From NCBI GenBank assembly GCA_963514005.1, contig OY740790.1, positions 51,832,001 through 51,896,000 of the forward strand: a stretch of DNA of 64,000 bases, in the 5' to 3' direction. The notes below the pieces were generated by a model, which did no database searches, was not told the DNA's origin, and worked only from the letters and a program-made list of their open reading frames with translations. Each line of letters begins with the position of its first letter. Position 1 is the stretch's first letter. This DNA comes from Raja brachyura. Its lineage: Eukaryota. Below are positions 1 through 43,088 of the stretch, piece after piece. Position numbers and translations under genes: made by a program.

Positions 1-329
1 AATATGATTTTGTGCTCTGTGTAACCCCAGGACTGGTTTGAGCAATTTTGTGAATAGTCTGGGAGTCAAAGTTAATCCGTTAGGCAAAGCTTTAAACTGC
101 CAGAACTGACCCATCCAGTTAAACTTAAAAAAAATTCTGTGCTGCTCATGAATGGCCACTGAATAGTAAGCATCTTTGAGATCAATGCATGCCATATAAC
201 ATCCCCTGGAAAGCAGTTGTTTAGCTGTAACAAACGTTTCCATTTTGAAATGTTTACACTGCACAAAAGTGTTAAGATCTGTCAAATCTAAAATAATTCT
301 ACATCCTCAGTCCTTTTATGGCCCCATTT

Positions 330-2021
330 GACACAAATTGATAAGACTCACACCTTGCCCTTTCAATTACACCTTTTTTAAACAAAGACTCTAGCTCTTT
401 TTGTGCACGAACACACTCCTGTTGTGAGAACACAAACTTACGGCCAGGTGTGTACTGAGTATGTGGAGGCCAGTCAGAAATAAACACAATTTGAAAACCT
501 TGAATACTATGCAGTATAAACAGGTTAAATGTTATCCACTGCCATTCATGTAAGAAAAATTGCAATCTCCCCCCAAATTGTAATATATCCATTGCAGTCG
601 CACCTACCTTAGGATTTACTGGCGGTAACGTCGCTGCTTCTGCCCCCGAGGTCTGGGGAGTAGGACTGCTGGAGGTCGCCACATATTGAACATGGCCTGG
701 CTCGCGCCCTGCCCTAAAAAAGGCCTCTGTGTAGTTTGCTCCACACTTCGTCCACCATACCCAGTGAACTGTTTTGCAGGCCCCTGAGGGTAGGGATACA
801 GTCTGCGAAAAGACAACCCCTTTGGAGGCACCTTGATGAGCCCCACAGTCTTAGACTCCTCGTCCAAATCTTTCACCTGTTTCCTCAGGTTTTCTCCAAA
901 TTGGAGGTCTGGGGGTTGAACTGTCCCCGATTTACAAAGTCCAGCAAATTTAGGATTAATGGTAGGACGGATGGCATTTTTATGAATACAATTAATTTCA
1001 AAATGTGCATTGCACATTAATGCGTCCTCCTGAGTCTCTGAGAGAGGCGCCCCCTCCACTGACCTTGCAAAGGCCGTGATGCCCGAGGCGAGTAGCCGGA
1101 GTACCTTCTGTAATTTAAACTCCTGGGCTCTGACGCCCCCTCCAATGTTCCCCCATATAGATTGGTTTATGGGGACACTCAGTGAGGCACAGTTCTGTGG
1201 AATATTGCACCTGGCAGTGGTCTCCTCCATCGTCTGTTCTTGCAGAGGATGGGAAGCCATATAATTAATATTCTCGGCGAGCTCTGTGTCCAATGGCTCG
1301 CCGGTGAGGGCTGGGACCGCAAATCTGGATGCTATGGCCAATCCACCGGATGGTCCCTCTAGCCCAACTGTGCCTCTGTACTCTGGGTCATCATAGCTCT
1401 GACCTCGTACGCTCCCTTCATCAGCAGGGAGATATCACGCAGCCCTGTCACAGGCGCTGCTGCCTAGGGTACAATAAACTCCCCGGGCTCCGATAGCTCC
1501 TTCCTCTGGAGCGTATTGTGCTGGAGTAACCTCTCCACAAGGCTCTCCAGCTGGGCCAGCCTGCCGGTAACCCTGCCCTGAGGAGGGAACTCGCCCACCT
1601 CCTCCTGGCCTGACTCCTCAGAGTCCAGGGCCCTTACAGACTTCCTAGTGGCTTTCTACCCCCGTGGAGTAGCCAAGGTGCCTTCCCGCACAAAGTCTGT
1701 GGCTGCTGGCTGCTCTACCAGCAGCTCTTTAGGTGAAATCGGCGGTCACACGCTGCCCGTAGGCCCGTAGTCTTCCGCAGCCGTTTTGGTTGCGGCTCGC
1801 CTCTTCACCTTCAACATATTTGTAGAAACACGATACAAATGTACTCCAAACCCGGAGCAACGATTCCAGCAAAGCTATTTGAAAAAAACCTTTTAAACTT
1901 ACCTGCTGGAAGGAACGATGTGCCTGCCAGTCGGTCGTTGCGCAATGCGTCAGACGTAATGACGCGCATGCATGGGGACGGCCTTCTTCACGTAGTCACT
2001 CACGTGACTCCGAAGTAAAAT
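330..2021 (-). mobile_element. 3'-truncated DIRS1-like copy (5' terminus, gag and start of RT)
   Basis: Terminus TCTTCACGTAGTCACTCACGTGACTCCGAAGTAAAAT ends at 2021. Gag ORF 616-1341 (ENINYMASHPLQE, NAIRPTINPKFAGLCK). RT start GGRLQFF...YQFVSN, after which homology stops. Confidence 0.93.
616..1341 (-). pseudogene. DIRS gag-like ORF remnant
   Basis: Aligns by eye with the Gag portion of the 1056-aa ORF; the upstream part is disrupted. Confidence 0.85.
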
Positions 2022-4728: not shown

Positions 4729-5119
4729 AGGGCCTGTCCCACAAGGCGATTTTTTAGGTGACTGTCGGCGACTGTCATAGTCGGAGCAGGTCACCGAAAA
4801 GCCGGCGACTGGACTAATAGGCCTGTCCCACTTAGGTGACTTTTTAGGTGGCTGCCAGTGACTACGACAATGGAATTCACCGAAGTCTGCACCGGCGACA
4901 ACCTACGCCATCCTGCCGACAACCTACGACAGCACCTACGTCACGAGAGGACAAGCTACGACAAGCCCACAGTCACCGACTGTCGCTGAAAAGTTTTGAA
5001 CATTTCAAAATCCAGCAGCAACCAGAAAAACGTGGCTGAGGAGACTACTCACGACCATACAGGTGATACCCCTAGACCCCAGCCTAGTCGCCGGCAGTCG
5101 CCTAAGTCAGACAGGCCCT
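4729..5119. mobile_element. PIF/Harbinger-type MITE, family B, with duplicated left end
   Basis: Starts AGGGCCTGTCCCAC and ends ACAGGCCCT; flanks CAA/TAA; second left-end copy at about 4819; internal CGACAACCTACG repeats. Confidence 0.8.
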
Positions 5120-11625: not shown

Positions 11626-12036
11626 CTGTCATCGTAACAGCAACCTCCTTAACCACAAACAGTACTGGGATTGTAATGTGTGAATAATGTGTTATTAGAA
11701 ACAAATCTGTCTTCCATTCATTTAGCTTAGTTTAGATTAATTTATTGTCATGTGTATCGAGGTCTAGTGAAACGCTTCTGTTGCGTGCTAACCGGACAAT
11801 GGAAAGACAATAGTGAGATTAAACGAGAACTTACCTGTTCGAAGTTTGATCTTTATTTTATGAGGAGTTACGATGAGGGATTACGTGAAGAAGACCCCGC
11901 CTGGCGCTGGAACGGCATACTTCAAAGCAGCGGCATGAAAAACACAGAACCAAATAGCCGGAGTAAAATAGTAAGGCTCAAAATAGACTAGAACTACCAG
12001 ATGATCATTTATATTATGAGGGTTGGGAGTGGAGGG

Positions 12037-12149
12037 CACGTAATCCCTCATCGTAACTCCTCATAAAATAAAGATCAAACTTCGAACAGGTAAGTTCTCG
12101 TTTAATCTCACTATTTTACTTCGGAGTCACGTGAGTGACTACGTGAAGA
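12037..12149 (-). repeat. Internal complementary region (ICR) of the intact DIRS
   Basis: 12037-12115 is the exact reverse complement of 11809-11887, and 12112-12149 is the exact reverse complement of 16690-16727. The two parts overlap at TATT. Confidence 0.95.
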
Positions 12150-12400
12150 TTTTAAAGCCCTGTGTTTTCCATGTCGTAAACTCATTTCATACGACTCTCT
12201 GTTTGGTCAAAACAGTAGTGAGTAAAAATATTTTAACACATTGTTATATTTTATGTAATAAGTCCTTTAATTATAAAAAAGAACAACTTTTTTAAAATAA
12301 GAACCCCTCTATTGCAGGGGAAAATTACAACAATTGATAAATGATGTAAATGGTAACATAAATCGATAATATAAATCGATAATATAAACAAAGCAAGCAT

Positions 12401-13360
12401 TCAAAGGGAACCCAGTACTGCGTGTCCAAATCCTGGCACCGTGACAACGGGTTTATTGTAGAACTTTGAAAAAGTTTCTTCTCTAGACCACCCTGCGGCC
12501 TCTAAAATTTGATCGAGTGGTACGTCCTGTACCTTCGCCGCGGACGTAGCTGCTGCCCTAGTGGAGTGAGATTTAAACACATCAGTGTCTATTCCTGCTA
12601 GACCCAAAACCTGTTTTAACCATCTAGAAATGGTTTGAACTGAAACTTTTGTATGTGGTTTTTTGTGTGTTATTAATAACGCTTTCTCAGAACCTCTGAG
12701 ACTTTTGGTTACCTCCATGTATTGAGTTAAATGCTTAACTACACACAACGTTTCATCAATAGGATATGCTTTAAACATTACCTTCATTCCAGTTTTCCCT
12801 GGTCTGCTTTGTTTGATCAAGTCATAGACATAAAACACAATGTTATCTGAAGTCACATGCATGCAATCCAACCTTAACAATTGCAAAGTCTGTACTCTTT
12901 GAGCTGATACCAATGCCATTAACATAACCACCTTGAATGTTAAGTTCTGTAAAGACATTGAATTAATTGGAGTCCATTGTTTAAGCAAAGTGAGAACAAT
13001 GCTAACATCCCAAATTTCTGTATATCTGGGCTTGGGAGGATTTTTATTAAAAATACCTTTCATGAATCGGGATACTAATGGGTGAGACCCAACTGAATCT
13101 CGATCCGAAATTTGTCCTAAATAGGATGACAATGCACTCCGAGCACAATTAATGGCACTATAACTCAAATGTTCATCAAAGTGCAACCCAGCAAGGAACT
13201 CCAATACATTTGAAATGTTAGCAGAATGATAAGATATCTTTGACTGTGTACAAAAGGCTTCCCATTTTCTTATATATGACATATATTGTTTTTTAGTGCT
13301 AGTCCTCCAAGCTGCATCTATAACATCCATGGTCCTGTCCGACAGTTCAAACTCTTGCAA
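12401..13360 (-). CDS. DIRS tyrosine recombinase (track start is TTG; first ATG is ACCATGG at 13330)
   Basis: Catalytic set R (SAQRVQ), K (LIKQSR), HxxR (HSTR), W (AAGW), Y (FYNK), plus an integrase core-binding-like N-terminal region. Confidence 0.95.
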   Translation of the reverse strand: MQEFELSDRTMDVIDAAWRTSTKKQYMSYIRKWEAFCTQSKISYHSANISNVLEFLAGLHFDEHLSYSAINCARSALSSYLGQISDRDSVGSHPLVSRFMKGIFNKNPPKPRYTEIWDVSIVLTLLKQWTPINSMSLQNLTFKVVMLMALVSAQRVQTLQLLRLDCMHVTSDNIVFYVYDLIKQSRPGKTGMKVMFKAYPIDETLCVVKHLTQYMEVTKSLRGSEKALLITHKKPHTKVSVQTISRWLKQVLGLAGIDTDVFKSHSTRAAATSAAKVQDVPLDQILEAAGWSREETFSKFYNKPVVTVPGFGHAVLGSL

Positions 13361-13368
13361 TGGTCTGG

Positions 13369-16300
13369 TCAGAACCTGCAGATTAACAAATTCATATGAT
13401 CATGCAATGGATGAATTTCTTTTGTTACTGGTTGTGTCAACAGATTGTCGCAACTGGGAATAACCATACATGGTTCGATAATCATTTCTAGCATCAATGG
13501 GAACCATGACTGTGTGGGCCAATTTGGCACCACCAAAATGCCTTTGGCAGCGTCTTGCGCTATTTTCTTGAGACATTGCCCAATGAGACAGAATGGGGGA
13601 AAAGCATAAAAGAACGTATCCCCCCAGTGTAGCGAGAAAGCATCCACCGCTACTGCCCCCGGATCGTGTTCCCAAGACACGTATTTCGGCAATTGGTGAT
13701 TCAATCTAGATGCAAACAGATCAATGTCCGGTACTCCATACCGACTGACAATATTTTTGAAAATTTGTGGATTTAACATCCATTCTGTATTGTCTTTAAA
13801 TATCCGTGATCTTTTGTCTGCCACAACATTGTTTCTTCCTGGGAGATAAATAGCTGAAAGCCAAATATTTTTTGTAATACACCATTGCCATATCTGGTTT
13901 ACCAGATGATCACATGGAATTGATCTGACACCACCCATGTGATTGATATATGCCACAGCTGTGGTATTATCTATTTGTACTTGGACATGTAAATCCTTTA
14001 ATGAAGAGCAATAAGCTTTTAATCCATAGAATGCTCCCAGTAACTCCAAATAATTAATACCATATGTTTGGAGCAATAAATCCTCTTGGACAGCCCATCT
14101 GCCTCCACAGCTGGTCTCATTGTCCGTAGCCCCCCATCCGAGAGAACTTGCGTCAGTTTGTAATACCACGACTGGCTGATGAACTAAAATGTTTTTAGCA
14201 GCTTGTGGAACATTCTCAATCCACCATTGTAATTCCGATAAAGCTTCCTTAGGCAATTGCATTGGCCTATCAAAATGGCCTGCTCGCTGAATTAGTGCTT
14301 TAGTTTTTGCCCTTTGAAGATTCTGGTAATGTAACCGACCAAATTCTACTGCTGGAAATGCTGCTACCAATTTACCAATACCCTTGGCAACCTCTCGGAT
14401 GGAGGGATAAGGTTTGTTAATCAATTTTTGACATACATCTGTCAAATCTAACTCCTTATTCATTGGTAAAGTTACCAACATGGTGACTGAGTTAATCAGA
14501 AACCCCAGATATTCAATGGTTTGGGACGGCTGTAACTTAGACTTTGTTGGATGGATCAGAAACCCCAACTTCTCCAACAAGCTAATAGTTGCTGAGACTG
14601 ATTCCCCAGCTAATTCCTGATTAGCATTGACAATTAGAATGTCATCTAGATAAGCCATAACGATGTGTTTTTGTGCCCTTAACAGTGCAAGTGCTGGTTT
14701 TAACAATTTAGTGAACAATCTAGGTGCTGAACTTAATCCATTTGGCAAAGCTTTGTATTGCCACAGCTGTCCCATCCATTTAAACTTTAAATACCTGCGA
14801 AAATCATGACGAATTGAGACCGAATAATATGCATCCTTCAAGTCTATTGTAGCCATATAACAACCTGTTGATACCAACTGCATTGCAGTGTAGAAAGTGT
14901 CCATTTTAAAATGTTTATACTGGACAAATGTATTCAAAAAAGTGAGATCTAAAATGATCCTACAACCCCCATCTTTCTTCAGTCTGGGGAAAATGTTTGA
15001 TATAATTTGTTGTGGATCCTCTCCTGTTCTCTCGATAACACCTTTTTTACTCAAACTCTTAATCTCTTTGTCCATTTGATTAACCTCAAACTCGGAGAAC
15101 CTTAAAGGATGACTAGGGTCATACTGTCCCAATGGAACCATACCTTCCACAAAATCAATGGTAGATCCTTGTACAGTGTCTAATACCACACGATCAACTG
15201 TAATATTGTCCCATTCCTTATAAAACATTTGGAGTCTACCGCCAATCTGTGGCCCATCCCAGCATTCCTTTTTTATGGGATAATGTTTATGTACCTCTCC
15301 AGCTGGACGAGATGATCTCCTTTTCCCAAGGAATGGGTGTACATTCGGCTGTGTTGGCTGGAAATTCCTCCTTATCATACTCCTGCCTCGGCTTGTACCA
15401 GCTCCAAAATCAAATCTCTTCCTTGAATAGCCAGACCATCTCTGGCCAAAGTTGAAGGGTCTCATACGACTAAAAGTTTTTGCGTCTTCATCCATTTCTT
15501 TAATTTGTTTAGACAAATCCTCTCCGAACAAAAACCCAGGAGTTTGAACATTGCTTGGTTTACACAATCCTGCAAATCTTGGATGTAACAGAGGTCGAAT
15601 GGCAATCTTCCTCATGCAATTAATCTCAAAAAATGAGTTGCAAAATAAGGCCAACATATGTTTCTGCACTTTGGTCATTCCACAACCTTCCACTTGTCTG
15701 CCAAATGCAGTAATGCCAGCTGAAATCAGCTTGAGGACTCTTTGAAATCGAATTTCCTGCGCCCGCATAATTGATGACATAGGCGCCCAAACAACTGAAT
15801 TCACCGTAGGTACCTTCAATGAGGCACAATTGATCGGTGTTTTATATATTTCTGCTGTCTCAACCATAACAGCCTCTTGAAGCGGGTGAGAGACCATATA
15901 ATTAATATTGGCCGCCAGGTTTTCTTCCATGGCCTCACCGCTTCCTCCAGGTATAGCAAAGTCTTGTGCCACATCAGGCACACCTGGATCCATATATTTG
16001 AATTGTGGTGTGTCCTCCGGACCACAAACACCACTTGCAGGGTCTGTCTCATACAGCCCTGGTACTCCTGAAACTTGTTCAAAGGAGACTTCCTCCAGTC
16101 CATACCCAGGCACTGGGGTTTCAAATTCCCAATTCGAATTGGCACCATATTCACGATATGGAACCCCCTCAGGGGCTGCCTGGGAATATTCTGGGTTCGT
16201 AGACCCTTGGTTGATTATAGTCTGGAGCATTTTCTCCATTTGGTCCATCCTAAGCCATAAGGCCTTCTTTTCTGGACCTTCAGAATCAGAGTCCTCTGAA

Positions 16301-16539
16301 AACCCAGGCCCTGCAGCTTTTCTTTTACTTTTTTGAGGCACTGGGATTTCCTCTACAGTTTCCATTTGTGGAGCAACCAAAGCCTCACTAACGGGTGTTT
16401 CAACGGCCGCCGGTATCGGAACCGGCTCCGCACTAAACTGCTGTCCCGACTCTTCTGCACCCCGGGACGCACGTTTTACCCGCTGTTTCTTGGCCTTCTC
16501 CATTTTATTTTTTCCTCTAACTCCTCCTGGTTTACCCAC
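13369..16539 (-). CDS. DIRS Gag-like + reverse transcriptase + RNase H + Dam-like methyltransferase polyprotein (1056 aa from GTG; first ATG at 16503)
   Basis: RT motifs KKDGGCRIILDL, DLKDAYY, LPNGLSSAP, YLDD. RNase H motifs TDAS, INYLEL, IDNTTA, ADKRSR. MT motifs DIDLFAS and YAFPPF. The N-terminal region is homologous to the Gag ORFs of the other two copies. Confidence 0.95.
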   Translation of the reverse strand: MGKPGGVRGKNKMEKAKKQRVKRASRGAEESGQQFSAEPVPIPAAVETPVSEALVAPQMETVEEIPVPQKSKRKAAGPGFSEDSDSEGPEKKALWLRMDQMEKMLQTIINQGSTNPEYSQAAPEGVPYREYGANSNWEFETPVPGYGLEEVSFEQVSGVPGLYETDPASGVCGPEDTPQFKYMDPGVPDVAQDFAIPGGSGEAMEENLAANINYMVSHPLQEAVMVETAEIYKTPINCASLKVPTVNSVVWAPMSSIMRAQEIRFQRVLKLISAGITAFGRQVEGCGMTKVQKHMLALFCNSFFEINCMRKIAIRPLLHPRFAGLCKPSNVQTPGFLFGEDLSKQIKEMDEDAKTFSRMRPFNFGQRWSGYSRKRFDFGAGTSRGRSMIRRNFQPTQPNVHPFLGKRRSSRPAGEVHKHYPIKKECWDGPQIGGRLQMFYKEWDNITVDRVVLDTVQGSTIDFVEGMVPLGQYDPSHPLRFSEFEVNQMDKEIKSLSKKGVIERTGEDPQQIISNIFPRLKKDGGCRIILDLTFLNTFVQYKHFKMDTFYTAMQLVSTGCYMATIDLKDAYYSVSIRHDFRRYLKFKWMGQLWQYKALPNGLSSAPRLFTKLLKPALALLRAQKHIVMAYLDDILIVNANQELAGESVSATISLLEKLGFLIHPTKSKLQPSQTIEYLGFLINSVTMLVTLPMNKELDLTDVCQKLINKPYPSIREVAKGIGKLVAAFPAVEFGRLHYQNLQRAKTKALIQRAGHFDRPMQLPKEALSELQWWIENVPQAAKNILVHQPVVVLQTDASSLGWGATDNETSCGGRWAVQEDLLLQTYGINYLELLGAFYGLKAYCSSLKDLHVQVQIDNTTAVAYINHMGGVRSIPCDHLVNQIWQWCITKNIWLSAIYLPGRNNVVADKRSRIFKDNTEWMLNPQIFKNIVSRYGVPDIDLFASRLNHQLPKYVSWEHDPGAVAVDAFSLHWGDTFFYAFPPFCLIGQCLKKIAQDAAKGILVVPNWPTQSWFPLMLEMIIEPCMVIPSCDNLLTQPVTKEIHPLHDHMNLLICRF

Positions 16540-17147
16540 CAGGCTACGGAGTTCTGAAACCTCGCCCCAAATTTTGTAAAACTTTCTTACCTGCGGGCCG
16601 GTTCCTTACCGCTGTGTGGAGCTGCGCTCTGCAGCTCTTTCGTTGCCGACAGCGACGACGTAATGCCGTTCCAGCGCCAGGCGGGGTCTTCTTCACGTAG
16701 TCACTCACGTGACTCCGAAGTAAAATACATGATTACAGTTGAACCATCCACTGTGTACAGATGCATGATAAAGGGGATAACATGAATTTCAAGATAAAGT
16801 CCAGCATAGTCCTATTAGAGGTAGCCGAGGGTCTCGAATGAGGTAATTAATAGCTCAGGACTTGTTCTCTAATTATTGGTAGGATGATAGCAACTGGGAA
16901 AAAACTGTCCCTGAATCTGGAGGTGTGCATTTTCACACTTCTATACCTCTTGTCTGATGGGAGAGCGGATAAGAGGCAGCATGAGGTGTAAATGGGGTCA
17001 ATGGGCAGGAGGTTAATTTGTGTGATGGTCTGGGCTGCTTCCACAATTCTCTGCAATTTCTTGCAGTCTTGGATGGAGCTGTTCCCAAACTAATCTGTTA
17101 TACATATCGATAAAATGGTTTCTGTAGGTTGTTGAGTTTTGGAGACA

Positions 17148-21131: not shown

Positions 21132-22747
21132 CAGTGGCATGCAAAAGTATTCATACCCCTTGAACTTTTCCACATTTTGTCACGTTACAACCACAAACGT
21201 AAATGTATTTTATTGGGATTTTATGTGATAGACCAACACAAAGTGGCACATAATTGTGAAGTGGAAGGAAAATTAATACATGGTTTTCAATTTTTTTTCC
21301 ATATAAAAAACTGAAAAGTGTCACATACAAAAGTATTCAGCCCCCTTTACTCTGATACCCCTAAATAAAATCCAGTGCAACCAATTGCCTCCAGAAGTCA
21401 CCTAATTAGTAAATAGAGTCCACGTGTGTAATCTAATCTCAGTATAAAAAGAGCTGTTCTGTGAAGGCCTCAGAGGTTTGTTAGAGAACATTAGTGAACA
21501 AACAGCATCATGAAGCCCAAGGAACACACCATTCAGGTCAGGGATAACATTGTGGAGAAGTTTAAAGCAGGGTTAGGCTATAAAAAAATATCCCAAGCTT
21601 TGAACATCTCACGGAGCACTGTTGAATCTATCATCCTAAAATGGAAAGAGTATGGCACAACTGCAAACCCACCAAGACATGGCCGTCCACCTAAACTGAC
21701 AGGCCGGGCAAGGAGAGCATTGATCAGAGAAGCAGCCAAGAGGCCCATGGTTACTCTGGAGGAGCTGCAGAGATTCACAGCTCAGGTGGGAGAATCTGTC
21801 CACAGGACAACTATTAGTCATGCACTCCACAAATTGGGCCTTTATGGAAGAGTGGCAAGAAGAAAGCCATTGTTGAAACAAAGCCATAAGAAGTCCCGTT
21901 TGCAGTTTGCCACAAGCCATATGGGGGACACAGCAAACATGTGGAGGAAGGTGCTCTGGTCTGATGAGACCAAAATTGATGTTTTTGGCCTAAAAGCAAA
22001 ACGCTATGTGTGGCATAAAACTAACACTGCACATCACCCTGAACACACCATCCCCACTGTGAAACATGGTGGTGGCAGCATCATGCTGTGGGGATGCTAT
22101 TCTTCAGCAGGGACAGGGAAGCTGGTCAGAGTTGATGGGAAGATGGATGGAGCCAAATACAGGGCAATCTTGGAAGAAAACCTGTTAGAGTCTGCAAAAG
22201 ACTTGAGACTGGGGCGGAGGTTCACCTTCCAGCAGGACAATGACCCTAAACATACAGCCAGAGCTACAATGGAATGGTTTAGATCAAAGCATATTCACGT
22301 GCAAGAATGGCCCAGTCAAAGTCCAGACCCAAATTCAATTGAGAATCTCTGGCAAGACTTGAAAATTGCTGTTCACAGACGCTCTCCATCCAATTTGACT
22401 GAGCTTGAGCTATTTTTCAAAGAAGAATGGGAAAAATTTTCAGTCTCTAGATGTGCAAAGCTGGTAGAGGCATACACCAAAAGACTTGCAGCTGTAATTG
22501 CAGCAAAAGGTGGTTCTACAAAGTATTGACTCAGGGGGGCTGAATACTTTTGCACGCCACACTTTTCAGTTTTATATTTGTAATAAAATTTGTAAACCAT
22601 GTATAATTTTCCTTCCACTTCACAATTATGCATCACTTTGTGTTGGTCTATCACATAAAATCCCAATAAAATACATTTACGTTTGTGGTTGTAACGTGAC
22701 AAAATGTGGAAAAGTTCAAGGGGTATGAATACTTTTGCAAGCCAGTG
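21132..22747 (+). mobile_element. Full-length Tc1 DNA transposon, IR/DR type
   Basis: TIRs of about 215 bp with outer/inner direct repeats (CAAAAGTATTCATACCCCT / CAAAAGTATTCAGCCCCCT). TA TSD at 21130-21131 and 22748-22749. The flanks rejoin into a CR1 3' end. Confidence 0.97.
21510..22529 (+). CDS. Tc1 transposase, DD34E (339 aa)
   Basis: Paired-like HTH, GRP linker, ARRKPLL, WSDET, QQDND and 34 residues to the catalytic E. SPDLNPIE is altered to SPDPNSIE. Confidence 0.95.
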   Translation: MKPKEHTIQVRDNIVEKFKAGLGYKKISQALNISRSTVESIILKWKEYGTTANPPRHGRPPKLTGRARRALIREAAKRPMVTLEELQRFTAQVGESVHRTTISHALHKLGLYGRVARRKPLLKQSHKKSRLQFATSHMGDTANMWRKVLWSDETKIDVFGLKAKRYVWHKTNTAHHPEHTIPTVKHGGGSIMLWGCYSSAGTGKLVRVDGKMDGAKYRAILEENLLESAKDLRLGRRFTFQQDNDPKHTARATMEWFRSKHIHVQEWPSQSPDPNSIENLWQDLKIAVHRRSPSNLTELELFFKEEWEKFSVSRCAKLVEAYTKRLAAVIAAKGGSTKY

Positions 22748-38369: not shown

Positions 38370-41300
38370 ATTGTACTTCGGAGTCACGTGAGTGATACGT
38401 GAAGAAATCCCGCCAGTCCACATGCGTGTCATTACGTCTGACGGATGGTGCAGCGACCGGCTGGGAGGTGCATCGCTCCTCCAGCAGGTACGTTTTAAAA
38501 CCTCAGGTAAGTGTTAAACTTAGTCAAAGGTCGCTTTCTGTGTTAGAGTAATTCTTGTTTTCAGGATACAAGTTTTCAATGAGGGAAAGCGTTTACAATG
38601 AAGTCTAGGCGAGCCAATGGGAAAGCTGTGGAAGACCGCGGGAGTGAGGAGTGAGGGTAGCGGGCGGCCGCCTAGTTCACCTATTCAGTCGCTAGCGGGT
38701 CGACCAGCGACTGCAGACTTGGTGCCTGAGAGCACCATGGCCACAAGCAAGGTGACTCGAAAGTCTGCACGGCCCACAGACTCAGATGAGTCGGGCCAGG
38801 GGGGTTCCCCTCCAGGAATGGATACCGTTTTTGCACGGATGCTCCATCAAGACACGCTCCGGCAGGAGTGGTGTCTACGCCGACTTACAGGACAGCCCGC
38901 GCCAGCAGCGCCTGAAACAGGACTGCTTAATCGCTCCCTCTTGGAGGAGGTGAGCTTAACGGGTCAGTTTGATTTTTGACGCCGAGTCTATGGGTATAGC
39001 GGTGGAGCATACCCCAAAGGATGAAGGGCACGAGCCAGAAGTACCATTCCTGGAAGCAAGATTTGCCATCCCAAAAGAGTCAGGAGAACCGCTGGGTGAT
39101 GAATTGGCTGCAACCATAAATTATCTGGCTTCACATCAGCTGTCTAATCCATAGTCAGCAAATGCTGACTATGGATGAGACAGCCAAAAAATATGAGACC
39201 CCGGCTAACTGTGTGCTACTTAAAGTACTGATGGTAAATCACGTTATATGGGGCCATATGGGTGTTGGCATCAGGACTCAAGAAATGAAGCTTCAGAGGG
39301 TGCTGAAGTTGCTCGCCTCGGGCATTACTGCATTGATGGACGGGGGGCACCTGTCTGATACACAGCAGGATGCCTTAGCCCTCATGTGCAATGCACACTT
39401 TGAAATTAATTATTTGAGGAAAAGTGCCATTCGCCCTACCATCAACCCAAAATGTGCGGCGCTGTGTAAACCCAGCAACATTCAGCCACCAGATCTGCTG
39501 TTTGGGGAAGACTTCGCAAAAAGAGTTAAAGAGCTCAATGACGAGGCAAGAACGGTGGGACTGATTAAAGCACCGATGGTCAGCAGGATGGTTCGGTGGC
39601 AGTTCCCCTACAGACGAATAGCAGAGACCAGGTCTGGTCAAGGAACAAGCCGGCCATTCGTTAATGTGCACAGCTGGCGCGCTCCAACTGGGGCACGAGC
39701 AAACATGCCTTTTATCCACCAGGAACCGGGGACAGCAAATTCCACCGGTAACCATGGAAGTCTGGTTCTTATAGGAACATATTAAATGAGAAACACCTAC
39801 AAGTTAGGGGGCGATTACACTTGTTTCTAAAGGAATTACATGAGATAACATCAGATCCATTTATATTGTGCAGTGTACAAGGTTTTTGAATTGAATTCCT
39901 TCCCAATTTGTGTCCACCCACTCAGCATGTTCCAAGCCGGACACTTGTTTTCTCACAAAAAGAAAAGATGGAGGTACAGGTAGAACTTGAAAAATTATAC
40001 AAAAAAGGGGTAACTGAGAAGTCGGTTCGCCAACTCCACCAATTTGTGTCTAATATTTTTCCTAGGTCAAAAAAGGATGGGGGATGTAGAATCATCCTCG
40101 ACCTGACGAGCCTTAACCCGTTTGTACAGTATAAACATTTCAAAATGGAAACTTTTGTTACTGCCAAACAATTGGTTTCCAGAAGATGTTATATGGCATG
40201 TATAGACCTTAAAGATGCATATTACTCAGTGCCTGTTCATAGGGAGATAGGAGATATTTGAAATTTAGCTGGAGGAGTCAATTATGGCAATTCAAAGCAC
40301 TGCCTAATGGATTAACCTCAGCCCCTAGATTATTTACGAAACTGTTAAAACCAGTACTGGGGATCTCCGGGCTCAGGGTCATGATGTAATGGCCTATTTG
40401 GATGATATTGTAATCATAGGAAAGACTCGGGAAACGGCTGAATCATCCATTTCATTTGTTAAGCTTAATTTTGAGAGATTGAGGTTTCTCATTCATCCAG
40501 ATAAATCCAAATTAACACCAGTCAGAGTTATTGATTATTTGGGATTCACTATTAACTCAAATCCCATGTCAGTGACTCTGCCCAAGGACAAAAGGCTAGA
40601 GTTATTTGAAGTCTGTATCAAGTTCATAGAGGAGCAACAACCTTCAATTAGACAGGTGTCAAGCTTGATTGGCAAATTAGTGGCTGCTTTTCCAGCAGTG
40701 CAATTTGGACCCCTGCATTACCAAAATTTACAACGTGCAAAGGAACAGGCACTCAGGATACATACAGGTCATTATGACAGGCCCATGCAATTACCAGCTA
40801 AAGCCATTGCTGACGTGCACTGGTGGGTAAAGAATATCTCAAGTTCTTCCAGCAAAATTCTGGTTGACCAACCTTCCATTGTCTTACAGACTGATGTCAG
40901 TGCTCTAGGTTGGGGTGCTACTGGTACAATTTCTAGCTGTAGAGGCAGATGGAATATGCATGAGGCACCTCTTTTGCAATCACATGGGATTAGAAATTTT
41001 GGGAGCTTTAGAGCTTTTAGGAGCAGTGTATGGGCTTAAGGCTAATTGCTCTACTAAGTGTCACTTGCATGTTCAGCTTCAGATGGACTACACTATGGCA
41101 GTGGCATATGTTAATCATATGGGTGGAATCAAGTCGGAATCTTCAAATAGATTGGCTAATCTGATTTGGAACTGGTGTATTACCAGAAACATTTGGATTT
41201 CAGCTATCTACCTACCAAGTAGATTCAACATAGTGGTAGACACCAGGTCACGCAAATTCAATGACAACACAGAATGGATGTTGAATCATGAGGTGTTTAA

Positions 41301-43088
41301 CGACGTTGTTGCTCGGTATGAGATGCCGGATATTGATTTGTTTGCATCCAGACTCAACACCAGTTACCTAAATATGTTTCATGGGAACCAGACCCTGGGG
41401 CAGTAGCGGTTGATGCATTCTCGCCACATTGGGGTTGAATGTTTTTATATGAATTTCCCCCATTTTGCCTCATCAGTCAGTGTCTGCTCAAGATCAAGCA
41501 GGAGTCCGCCTCAGGAGTATTAGTGGTACCCGACTGGCCTACTCAGCCATGGTTTCCTCTCGTTTTGGAAATAATTACACAACCCCTTATGACTGTTCCC
41601 AAACGTAGTGACCTACTGGTGCACCCTGTAACTGGCGATCAACATCCTTTACATGACCGTATTGATCTGTTAATTTGCAGAATTGAGGAGACCATACCTG
41701 GGGCAAGGACTATCCAATCGAACCGTGGATGTGATCATTGCGGCCTGGAGGGATAGTACCCAAAAGCAGCACATCTCTCATGTCAGGAAATGGGAGGTGT
41801 TCTGCTTACGGCAGAATATTACATATCACACGGTATGCATCTCAAATGTGCTAGAATTCCTGTCAACTCTCTATTTTGATGAAGGGTTAAGCTACGGTGC
41901 GTCTGTACAGCCAGGAGTGCCCTGTCCTCATACTTGTGGATGGGATCAGAACAACATTCTATTGGGTCTCACCTCCAATATCTCGATTTATGAAGGGAAT
42001 TTTTAATTCCAATCCCCCCAGGCCCAGGAATTCAGTAATCTGGAGTGTAAGCGTTTTATTCACGCTGCTTCGTCAGTGGACTCCCATCACATCCCTGTCT
42101 TTGGCAAAGTCACCATGAAGGTAGTCATGCTCATGGCACTGGTTTCAGCACAACGGGTGCAGACATTGCAGAAGTTGTGGCTAGACAGGATGGTAGCGTC
42201 TGCAGATATCATTACGTTTTACATTTATGATCTACTCAAGCAGAGCAGACCAGGGGTGACAGGGTGTAAGATCATTTTCTCGGCATACCCCACAGATTCA
42301 CGACTATGTGTTGTGTCACACTTGCTATATTATATCAAGGCCACCAAAAGCCTCAGAGGTGTGGAATCAGCATTATTTATTAGCCACAAAAAAACGCATA
42401 GGAAAGTGTCGGTTCAGACTATTTCAAGGTGGCTGAAGCAGGTTCTGGTTTGTGCAGGTATTGACACTGACAATTTTAAATCTCATTCCACCAGGGTGGC
42501 ATCAACGTCAGCGGCCAGGGCAATGGACGTGCCCCTCGACCATATCCTTGCGGCTGCAGGATGGTCAAGTGAATTAACTTTTCAAAAATTCTATCACAAA
42601 CCGATTGCCGAACCAGGGTTATTTGCCCATTCAGTTTTGAGTTCTGTTTTATAGCTTCCCCCTGGGACAGTGGGGTTGCTATTGTTTTTCTTTATTAAAA
42701 TAAACCATTAATACGTTCAAATCAATGTCATGGTTTAATGAATTGTTGATTATTAACTCATCCTGAGTCAATCGATACAGTGAGACGCCTGGATTTGAAT
42801 CTACGGCAAGAAATCACAGAGCTTTGAAATCTTCACGTAGTCACTCACGTGACTCCGAAGTAAAATAGTAAGATTAAACGAGAACTTACCAGTTTGAAAT
42901 TTGATCTTTATTTTATGAGGAGTTGCGATGAGTGATTACGTGCCCATCACTCCCAACCCTCCGCATGCGCGTCAATCTTCAAAGCAGCGGTGTGAAATCA
43001 CAGATAACCGTAATTGAAGTATCATAGTAAGATTAGAAACATAGAACTACCAGATGAACTTTGTGATATGAGGGTTGGGAGTGATGGG
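38370..43088 (+). mobile_element. Near full-length degenerate DIRS1-like copy with rearranged 3' end
   Basis: 5' terminus ATTGTACTTCGGAGTCACGTGAGTGA. Frameshifted gag (38617-39785), RT/RH/MT (39908-41690, YLDD, FPPF) and YR (41683-42654, HSTR, AAGW, FYHK). ICR at 42830-42942. Confidence 0.95.
39790..42654 (+). pseudogene. Frameshifted DIRS pol and tyrosine recombinase genes
   Basis: At least seven ORF fragments in alternating frames, colinear with the ORFs of the intact copy. Confidence 0.92.

Follow-up and report, generated by a model that had tools for sequence, protein, structure and literature searches.

A Fold-Back Around the ICR of DIRS1-Like Retrotransposons, With an Outer Helix Conserved by Base Pairing

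The 3' region of E1, a DIRS1-like retrotransposon in the window (the whole stretch of 64,000 nt that was analysed; coordinates are window positions unless a locus is named), contains a fold-back that is a real, selected structure with two parts of different history. The outer part, P1, is a 10–19 bp helix that brackets the ICR and is conserved by base pairing, not by sequence, from the lineages of this genome to distant DIRS elements. The inner part, the anti-ICR, pairs imperfectly with the ICR and occurs in a single clade, to which every lineage examined from this genome belongs. The mismatches that interrupt P1 are of the kind tolerated on the minus strand of the element, and we propose, at about an even level of confidence, that the fold-back is conserved because it acts in cis on the single-stranded first-strand cDNA, where it would aid the transfer of the cDNA 3' end onto the ICR. 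An earlier note on the sequence of this window had found the structure, but it likely assigned it to the wrong molecule and stressed the less conserved half.

The model of how DIRS1 elements rebuild their ends was reportedly proposed by Cappello. The DIRS1-like model for the termini and the ICR was later refined (PMC3266345) and experimentally tested in DIRS-1 of Dictyostelium (PMC7192593). According to the portions of the latter paper available, most of the right repeat and the ends are missing from the DIRS-1 transcript and its cDNA is a single strand, mostly in linear form; the ICR is dispensable for first-strand synthesis but required thereafter (PMC7192593).

Results

Element E1 and the Elements Compared

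E1 is an ordinary DIRS1-like retrotransposon (Table 1). As far as the available descriptions of DIRS1-like termini go, it shares with them the non-identical inverted repeats, the right extension, the two-ended ICR whose left and right parts overlap by 3 nt (the AAT/ATT junction, 12113-12115), the NTT ends (ATT in E1) and the presence of both a reverse transcriptase and a tyrosine recombinase, which are co-oriented in E1. The single 1078-aa frame matches RVT_1 above the cut-off (E 5e-19), while Dam (E 0.025) and PCIF1_WW (E 0.004) both fall below it; its RNase H-like and methyltransferase-like regions gave no RNase H family match and no solved-structure match and are assigned from motifs by eye only. 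The gag-like and pol regions form one uninterrupted frame, and the recombinase frame overlaps it by just 31 nt. Skate proteins are the nearest named relatives of the E1 recombinase. The E1 family is very young: all 40 scored matches in the 2.7-Gb genome are 100% identical over 392-396 nt, and in 30 of 30 young copies the ATT end is followed by unrelated flanks.

Table 1. Positions of E1, its parts and other features (window coordinates, or locus coordinates where a locus is named).
Feature	Position	Strand	Remarks
E1, intact DIRS1-like element	11809..16726	-	4918 nt; ATT at both start and end
5' inverted terminal repeat	16663..16726	-	aligned with 11854-11918: outer part divergent, inner part identical
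3' inverted terminal repeat, inner identical part	11888..11918	-	from the alignment to the 5' repeat
3' terminus (divergent repeat and right extension)	11809..11887	-	copied from the right ICR according to the standard model
Left ICR	12113..12149	-	exact complement of the 5' end: 38/38 against 16727-16690
Right ICR	12037..12115	-	exact 79-nt complement of the 3' terminus, 79/79
P1 clamp, upstream arm	12160..12177	-	
P1 clamp, downstream arm	11930..11947	-	
Motif M1, GCTTTAAAA, CTTTRAA type	12150..12158	-	between the upstream P1 arm and the ICR
Motif M2, GCTTTGAAG, second CTTTRAA copy	11920..11928	-	between the downstream P1 arm and the 3' repeat
Inner anti-ICR	11958..12036	-	pairs imperfectly with the right ICR, with the junction and with 12 nt of the left ICR
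Single 1078-aa frame	13369..16605	-	gag-like, reverse transcriptase, RNase H-like and methyltransferase-like regions
Tyrosine recombinase frame, 332 aa	12401..13399	-	PF00589 (Phage_integrase), E 8e-10, above cut-off
E2, older DIRS copy, 3' region	42800..43088	+	42962-43088 inverted, 19-bp duplication, terminus lost
Tc1/mariner-type transposase frame	21498..22529	+	343 aa
L140, atypically long spacer	L140:4606-5362		610 nt
L165, atypically long spacer	L165:1310-2002		556 nt

Two sets of elements were compared with E1. The set from the same genome comprises 14 lineages hand-picked among the recombinase clusters listed; L087, which lacks the M1 region, was excluded, and L230 was kept out of the tree for its short protein match. 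The metagenomic set began with 80 loci, of which 26 have a near-perfect inverted repeat; with L105, L119 and L122 (duplicates of kept families) and L151 (whose repeat is not the ICR) dropped, it holds 22 distinct elements with complete 3' ends and with recombinases about 40-52% identical to that of E1. Viral contigs contained no DIRS relative by protein search and their 17 pattern matches gave no usable element; two loci in prokaryote genome contigs, neither with an ICR core, were both dropped. The DIRS-like recombinases L188 and L189 sit in two bacterial metagenome-assembled genomes and probably represent eukaryotic contamination. The genome of E1 harbours at least five families whose recombinase frames are open (L001, L191, L234, L242 and L231 types), and besides E1 the 64 kb contains two DIRS copies from other families, both decayed, at 1-2021 (-) and 38370-43088 (+). 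A search of this genome for LAP2alpha-type DIRS gave no match, but its control was unmatched too.

Some sequence motifs recur at the termini. The sense 3' terminus of E1 contains CAGGTAAGT at 11822-11830, which we take to fit the splice-donor consensus, where the anti-ICR copy reads CTGGTAGTT instead; GGTAAG is found within the terminus of 28 of the 36 elements. A GCGCATGCGC-like palindrome and CACGTG, which presumably resemble NRF1 and E-box promoter motifs, recur in the inner terminal repeats of many elements. AATAAA is present in the terminus of 11 of the 14 own-genome lineages and of 0 of the 22 metagenomic elements, so a poly(A) signal was rejected as a general feature there.

The Fold-Back as a Whole

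The 261-nt stretch folds with a z-score of -7.22 as sense RNA and of -6.33 as DNA of the opposite strand, and in each case none of 200 shuffles folded equally well. The GAGGG/CCCTC apex and the AGTCAC/GTGACT side hairpin that had been described for it are both present in the predicted fold, and the complementarity of 11931-11947 to 12160-12176 was confirmed, with 15 of 17 positions in Watson-Crick pairs plus one A.C and one G.T. The segment 11958-12036, which the earlier note read as a diverged copy of the junction, does pair imperfectly with the ICR (60 Watson-Crick pairs in 89 columns with 19 gaps; z 11.7 against 500 dinucleotide shuffles), but the feature is not merely a second junction copy, because the outer pairing falls outside the ICR. 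G-U pairs give the sense strand no advantage, since the same RNA parameters yield -92.6 kcal/mol for sense and -93.1 kcal/mol for antisense. No Rfam 15 covariance model gave a family match to the feature; one chance-level match (E 0.51) lies outside it.

The second copy in the window, E2, had been thought to keep the same pairings with a compensatory change. E2 itself cannot form the rod: since 42962-43088 is inverted, GAAATCACAG stands in both "arms" on one and the same strand, P1 and the anti-ICR cannot pair, and the predicted fold is an ICR self-hairpin. Relatives of E2 without the rearrangement do bear out the compensatory change: of 29, 17 have exact matches to AAATCACAG and CTGTGATTT, oriented so that they can pair (4 others have the 5' arm alone exact, and in 8 the pattern is unmatched), and a third family carries AAACCACAG/CTGTGGTTT as its arm pair. 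The perfect 19-bp duplication in E2 (within 42943-43088) is of a C-rich tract; inversion and duplication together may have been left by a template switch within a fold-back intermediate.

The Outer Helix P1

P1 occurs at the same place in 14/14 own-genome lineages and in 18/22 distant metagenomic elements. When the 45 nt upstream of the ICR were paired with the spacer, the real spacer beat shuffled spacers in 14/14 and 17/22 elements of the two sets, respectively, and in fixed windows a score of at least 9 was reached in 19 of 23 self-pairings versus 10 of 506 cross-pairings. The arms are 29% identical between elements, and all four Watson-Crick pair types are found at 16 of the 17 helix positions. 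As had been suspected, the spacer is not random, and what maintains it across lineages is pairing. P1 ends 0-4 nt ahead of the CTTTRAA motif that opens the ICR. It scored below threshold in 4 of the 22 metagenomic elements (L112, L141, L146, L167), and a positioned P1 was not seen in three more loci without a matched terminus (L108, L128, L168).

L141 has an atypical 3' end (L141:2064-2306), in which a 131-nt inverted repeat spans the whole ICR; no P1 was seen there. L165 and L140, which are related, have spacers of 556 and 610 nt from ICR to terminus, yet P1 closes in both. On the sense strand, each arm of P1 is followed by a motif of CTTTRAA type (M1 and M2 in E1), which gives the folded helix a two-fold arrangement, and the motifs are a possible protein-binding signal. 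M1 has this position in the elements tabulated. A pseudoknot between M1 and M2 was also considered; the linker of 2-5 nt seems too short to span P1.

The Inner Anti-ICR

The anti-ICR is significant in 14/14 own-genome lineages (one of them at p 0.012), whereas among the 22 metagenomic elements it is significant in 5, borderline in 1 and absent from 16. In a recombinase tree of 35 rows, which has no outgroup root, a branch with support of 100/99 splits the carriers and the borderline case from the 16 others. The earlier note had proposed that 3' regions of many DIRS subfamilies be aligned; across the elements compared here it is P1 that is kept by pairing, while the inner part is kept in this one clade only. 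Within the clade the anti-ICR persists across recombinase lineages merely 46-60% identical to E1 and tracks changes in the ICR (GAAATGA/TCATTTC in L234 and L239 versus GAAGTA/TACTTC). In 19 of 20 elements its pairing with its own ICR exceeds the mean over the other ICRs, but its own ICR is the best partner in only 4 of 20. The bulge in the anti-ICR helix is not conserved beyond this genome.

Mismatch Bias and the Favoured Strand

Sense A.C, C.T and C.C mismatches correspond to G.T, G.A and G.G on the minus strand, and G-containing mismatches are the better tolerated ones in DNA. P1 mismatches were counted with a strand-neutral aligner, with the null taken from shuffled arms (52%). In the 18 distant elements the sense strand of P1 has 22 C-containing and 2 G-containing mismatches (p 4e-5), and by element the bias is 10 to 1 with 7 ties; a hold-out family adds one G.G, making the count 22 to 3. 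These counts overstate independence because some mismatches are shared by descent; tested per element, the bias has p 0.012, or 0.039 with the hold-out family. A mutational or compositional cause was ruled out by controls that lack such a skew: post-insertion decay in the ICR:terminus pairs of 149 copies gave 111 to 103 (Fisher p 5e-4 versus P1), four-fold sites have C 466 and G 385, and the 3' UTR has C 598 and G 774. The ICR self-hairpin is skewed in the opposite direction, with 6 C-containing to 99 G-containing sense mismatches (composition null 35%), so this hairpin is weak on the cDNA and a single mutational bias cannot explain both skews. The anti-ICR shows no strand bias (38 to 41 and 15 to 20).

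Duplex energies weigh against a strong strand preference. In the metagenomic set they favour the minus strand only weakly and without significance (11 to 5, p 0.06 with DNA parameters; 10 to 8, p 0.13 with RNA parameters), and the lead of the minus strand by 12 to 2 in the own genome is among related lineages. Tandem TC/TC sense mismatches, equivalent to tandem 5'-GA/5'-GA on the minus strand, recur in P1 of L130, L148, L152, L169 and L234. Since the sense strand of P1 carries C-containing mismatches whose minus-strand counterparts are tolerated, selection likely acts on the single-stranded first-strand cDNA, and we infer that the favoured strand is the cDNA and not an antisense RNA.

The Joined Ends

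When the ends of the minus strand are joined, their sequence equals that of the sense ICR (12037-12149). By eye, this sequence forms one long hairpin in 35 of 36 elements, with AAT near the top of the helix below a small purine-rich loop and with an inner AGATTAAAC/GTTTGATCT stem. With DNA parameters it is more stable than its complement in 36/36 elements, and its mismatches are G-containing by 99 to 6, a skew that identifies no strand because the same hairpin is that of the ICR in sense RNA.

Discussion

A Proposed Clamp for the Transfer of the cDNA 3' End

On the minus-strand cDNA, P1 would enclose the ICR in a domain adjacent to the duplex of the terminal repeats, and this closed geometry would assist the growing cDNA 3' end in passing from the repeat onto the ICR, so that the element ends are rebuilt. 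The landing site of the cDNA 3' end is predicted to be the ITR-proximal part of the left ICR. In the predicted co-fold the 31-bp repeat duplex lies 11 nt from the outer end of P1, and the landing site is about 10 nt from its inner end; this modeled geometry suggests a P1 role in strand transfer.

In the anti-ICR clade, the anti-ICR would be copied just before the ICR. It is then predicted to capture the right ICR and the junction in a weak, bubble-rich duplex that replaces the ICR self-hairpin and frees the landing site. Its later displacement by the perfect new strand would be irreversible. In cDNA folds of 20/20 elements of this clade, pairing between the landing site and the right ICR is at most 0.04, versus 0.07-0.79 for the ICR alone. 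In 14/14 folded elements without an anti-ICR the landing site is still paired (0.36-0.90), so freeing it is no general need. The DNA energies are -95.4 kcal/mol for the 79-bp terminus duplex, -31.0 for ICR:anti-ICR and -15.5 for the ICR self-hairpin; because the anti-ICR duplex beats the self-hairpin and loses to the true terminus, it is a possible placeholder that is displaced once. The anti-ICR and the true terminus are indeed mutually exclusive partners of the ICR, as had been suggested. The conformational switch derived from this is unlikely as a reversible RNA switch, since the perfect terminus duplex wins by a wide margin both as DNA and as RNA (-181.5 with the terminus present versus -103.1 kcal/mol for ICR:anti-ICR).

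The same note had also offered a priming signal for the reverse transcriptase. The finding that the DIRS-1 ICR is dispensable for first-strand synthesis, as given in the text available, argues against an ICR fold as a first-strand priming signal (PMC7192593). DIRS-1 also transposes despite a marker cassette between the ICR and the right repeat (PMC7192593, supplement, available in part). This tolerance fits either a long-range clamp or no clamp in DIRS-1, and it speaks against a universal anti-ICR.

A Possible Later Step on the Minus Strand

The minus-strand structure could instead serve a later step, as a single-strand origin for priming the second strand or as an aid to loading and folding for a recombinase that works on folded single-stranded DNA, like the integron integrase at attC sites. 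We think this unlikely, though the P1 strand bias fits it equally, the joined ends form the conserved hairpin described above, and the two-fold arrangement of the CTTTRAA motifs could suit a dimeric protein. The predominance of G-containing mismatches in the junction hairpin is like that of attC bottom strands in the available part of PMC5027507, and a circle-junction PCR on DIRS-1 gave no product, according to the text available (PMC7192593). A difficulty for a later step is that the regenerated joined ends lie in a perfect duplex with the ICR (-141.8 versus -24.7 kcal/mol for the hairpin), so release of the hairpin would need active unwinding. In addition, the hairpin skew does not tell cDNA from the ICR of sense RNA, and no literature linking DIRS with attC was found.

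In the available parts of the two sources, attC sites keep structure over sequence, favour one strand by G:T pairs and purine skew and are acted on by a tyrosine recombinase (PMC5027507, PMC5371416), and imperfect hairpins with one strand favoured are what we see in the junction sequence (99 to 6; 36/36) and in P1 (22 to 3). However, an attC is the recombination site itself, whereas P1 flanks a template, without a crossover, and recombination of folded single-stranded DNA would extend to DIRS by analogy only. A more speculative scheme, to which we give a rather low probability, is that DIRS elements replicate and integrate by way of successive programmed folds of the single-stranded minus DNA: P1 clamps the ICR for end regeneration, a displaceable placeholder is provided by the anti-ICR, and from the joined ends an attC-like hairpin forms that the recombinase uses with no double-stranded circle. 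If true, this would be an integron-like route of single-strand recombination in animal retrotransposons.

RNA Structures and Neutral Relics as Alternatives

The fold-back could also act in sense RNA, where the earlier note placed it, by masking the ICR, avoiding long perfect dsRNA or serving as an RT-binding signal; it might also be a packaging signal, with weak mismatches kept to let the enzyme read through. The rod is the predicted sense-RNA fold when the terminus is absent, P1 is predicted in the sense RNA of most elements too, and the anti-ICR is without strand bias. In RNA helices G.U is the usual tolerated change, but it accounts for just 1 of the 25 P1 mismatches, and the mismatches present fit poorly in a sense-strand helix, whereas their minus-strand forms are tolerated. 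Moreover, L091, L099, L139 and L160 have a fully paired P1, so weakness of the helix is not required, and the consensus sense fold of the 14 own-genome lineages is P1 plus the ICR self-hairpin, not the rod. The anti-ICR is clade-specific. The survival of DIRS-1 first-strand synthesis after ICR deletion, as described in the text available, also weighs against such a role (PMC7192593), and altogether we regard it as improbable.

A fold of antisense RNA driven from the right terminal repeat, rather than of cDNA, would place selection on the same strand and is more improbable still. G.U pairs and tandem 5'-GA/5'-GA pairs are stable in RNA too, and the tandem mismatches that recur in P1 of five elements would suit it. 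The DIRS-1 repeats drive both sense and antisense transcripts, in the part of PMC5633606 available. However, antisense RNA is not a known replication intermediate, which makes selection on its fold over such distances harder to explain, and in the distant set a change from DNA to RNA parameters does not strengthen the strand effect.

Least probable, and disfavoured for P1, is the view that an old inverted duplication left the fold-back behind as a neutral relic, or that occasional template switching copied one arm onto the other: templated copying does keep ICR and terminus identical in these elements, E2 shows that local inversion with duplication occurs, and the anti-ICR is gappy and about two-thirds paired, but P1 arms as divergent as these are still paired at a fixed position, their mismatch bias is far from neutral decay, and the anti-ICR has followed ICR changes across distant recombinases.

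Relation to Known Systems and Meaning

In LTR retroelements, strand-transfer structures use long-range pairing, mainly in RNA, to bring the nascent DNA end to the next template, and single-strand origins of rolling-circle plasmids are long imperfect hairpins on single-stranded DNA that are used in replication. By analogy, P1 is like the former in its long-range pairing and unlike them in its proposed action on cDNA, and the fold-back resembles the latter as a long imperfect hairpin that would act on single-stranded DNA.

No description of P1 or the anti-ICR was found in the literature, where key older DIRS papers could mention the pairing. A term search for P1 or the anti-ICR gave none in the available text of PMC3266345, PMC9210276, PMC3783388, PMC5633606, PMC13465315 and PMC7192593, and the words "hairpin", "stem" and "secondary structure" are absent from the text of PMC3266345 and PMC9210276. 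The sole hairpin cited in the available part of PMC7192593 is one of 14 nt at the RNA 3' end (DIRS-1 positions 4792-4805). The published DIRS1-like ICR is described there only as the partner of the termini (PMC3266345, PMC7192593, both as available), to which E1 adds P1 and the anti-ICR.

The rebuilding of DIRS ends, the second strand and integration are largely a 1985 model, of which only the requirement for the ICR has been shown so far. P1 names specific bases to mutate and predicts the cDNA as the molecule of action. DIRS 3' ends can also be annotated by P1 irrespective of their sequence, and the anti-ICR marks one clade. Together, P1 and the anti-ICR make the old question of how DIRS elements finish copying themselves directly testable.
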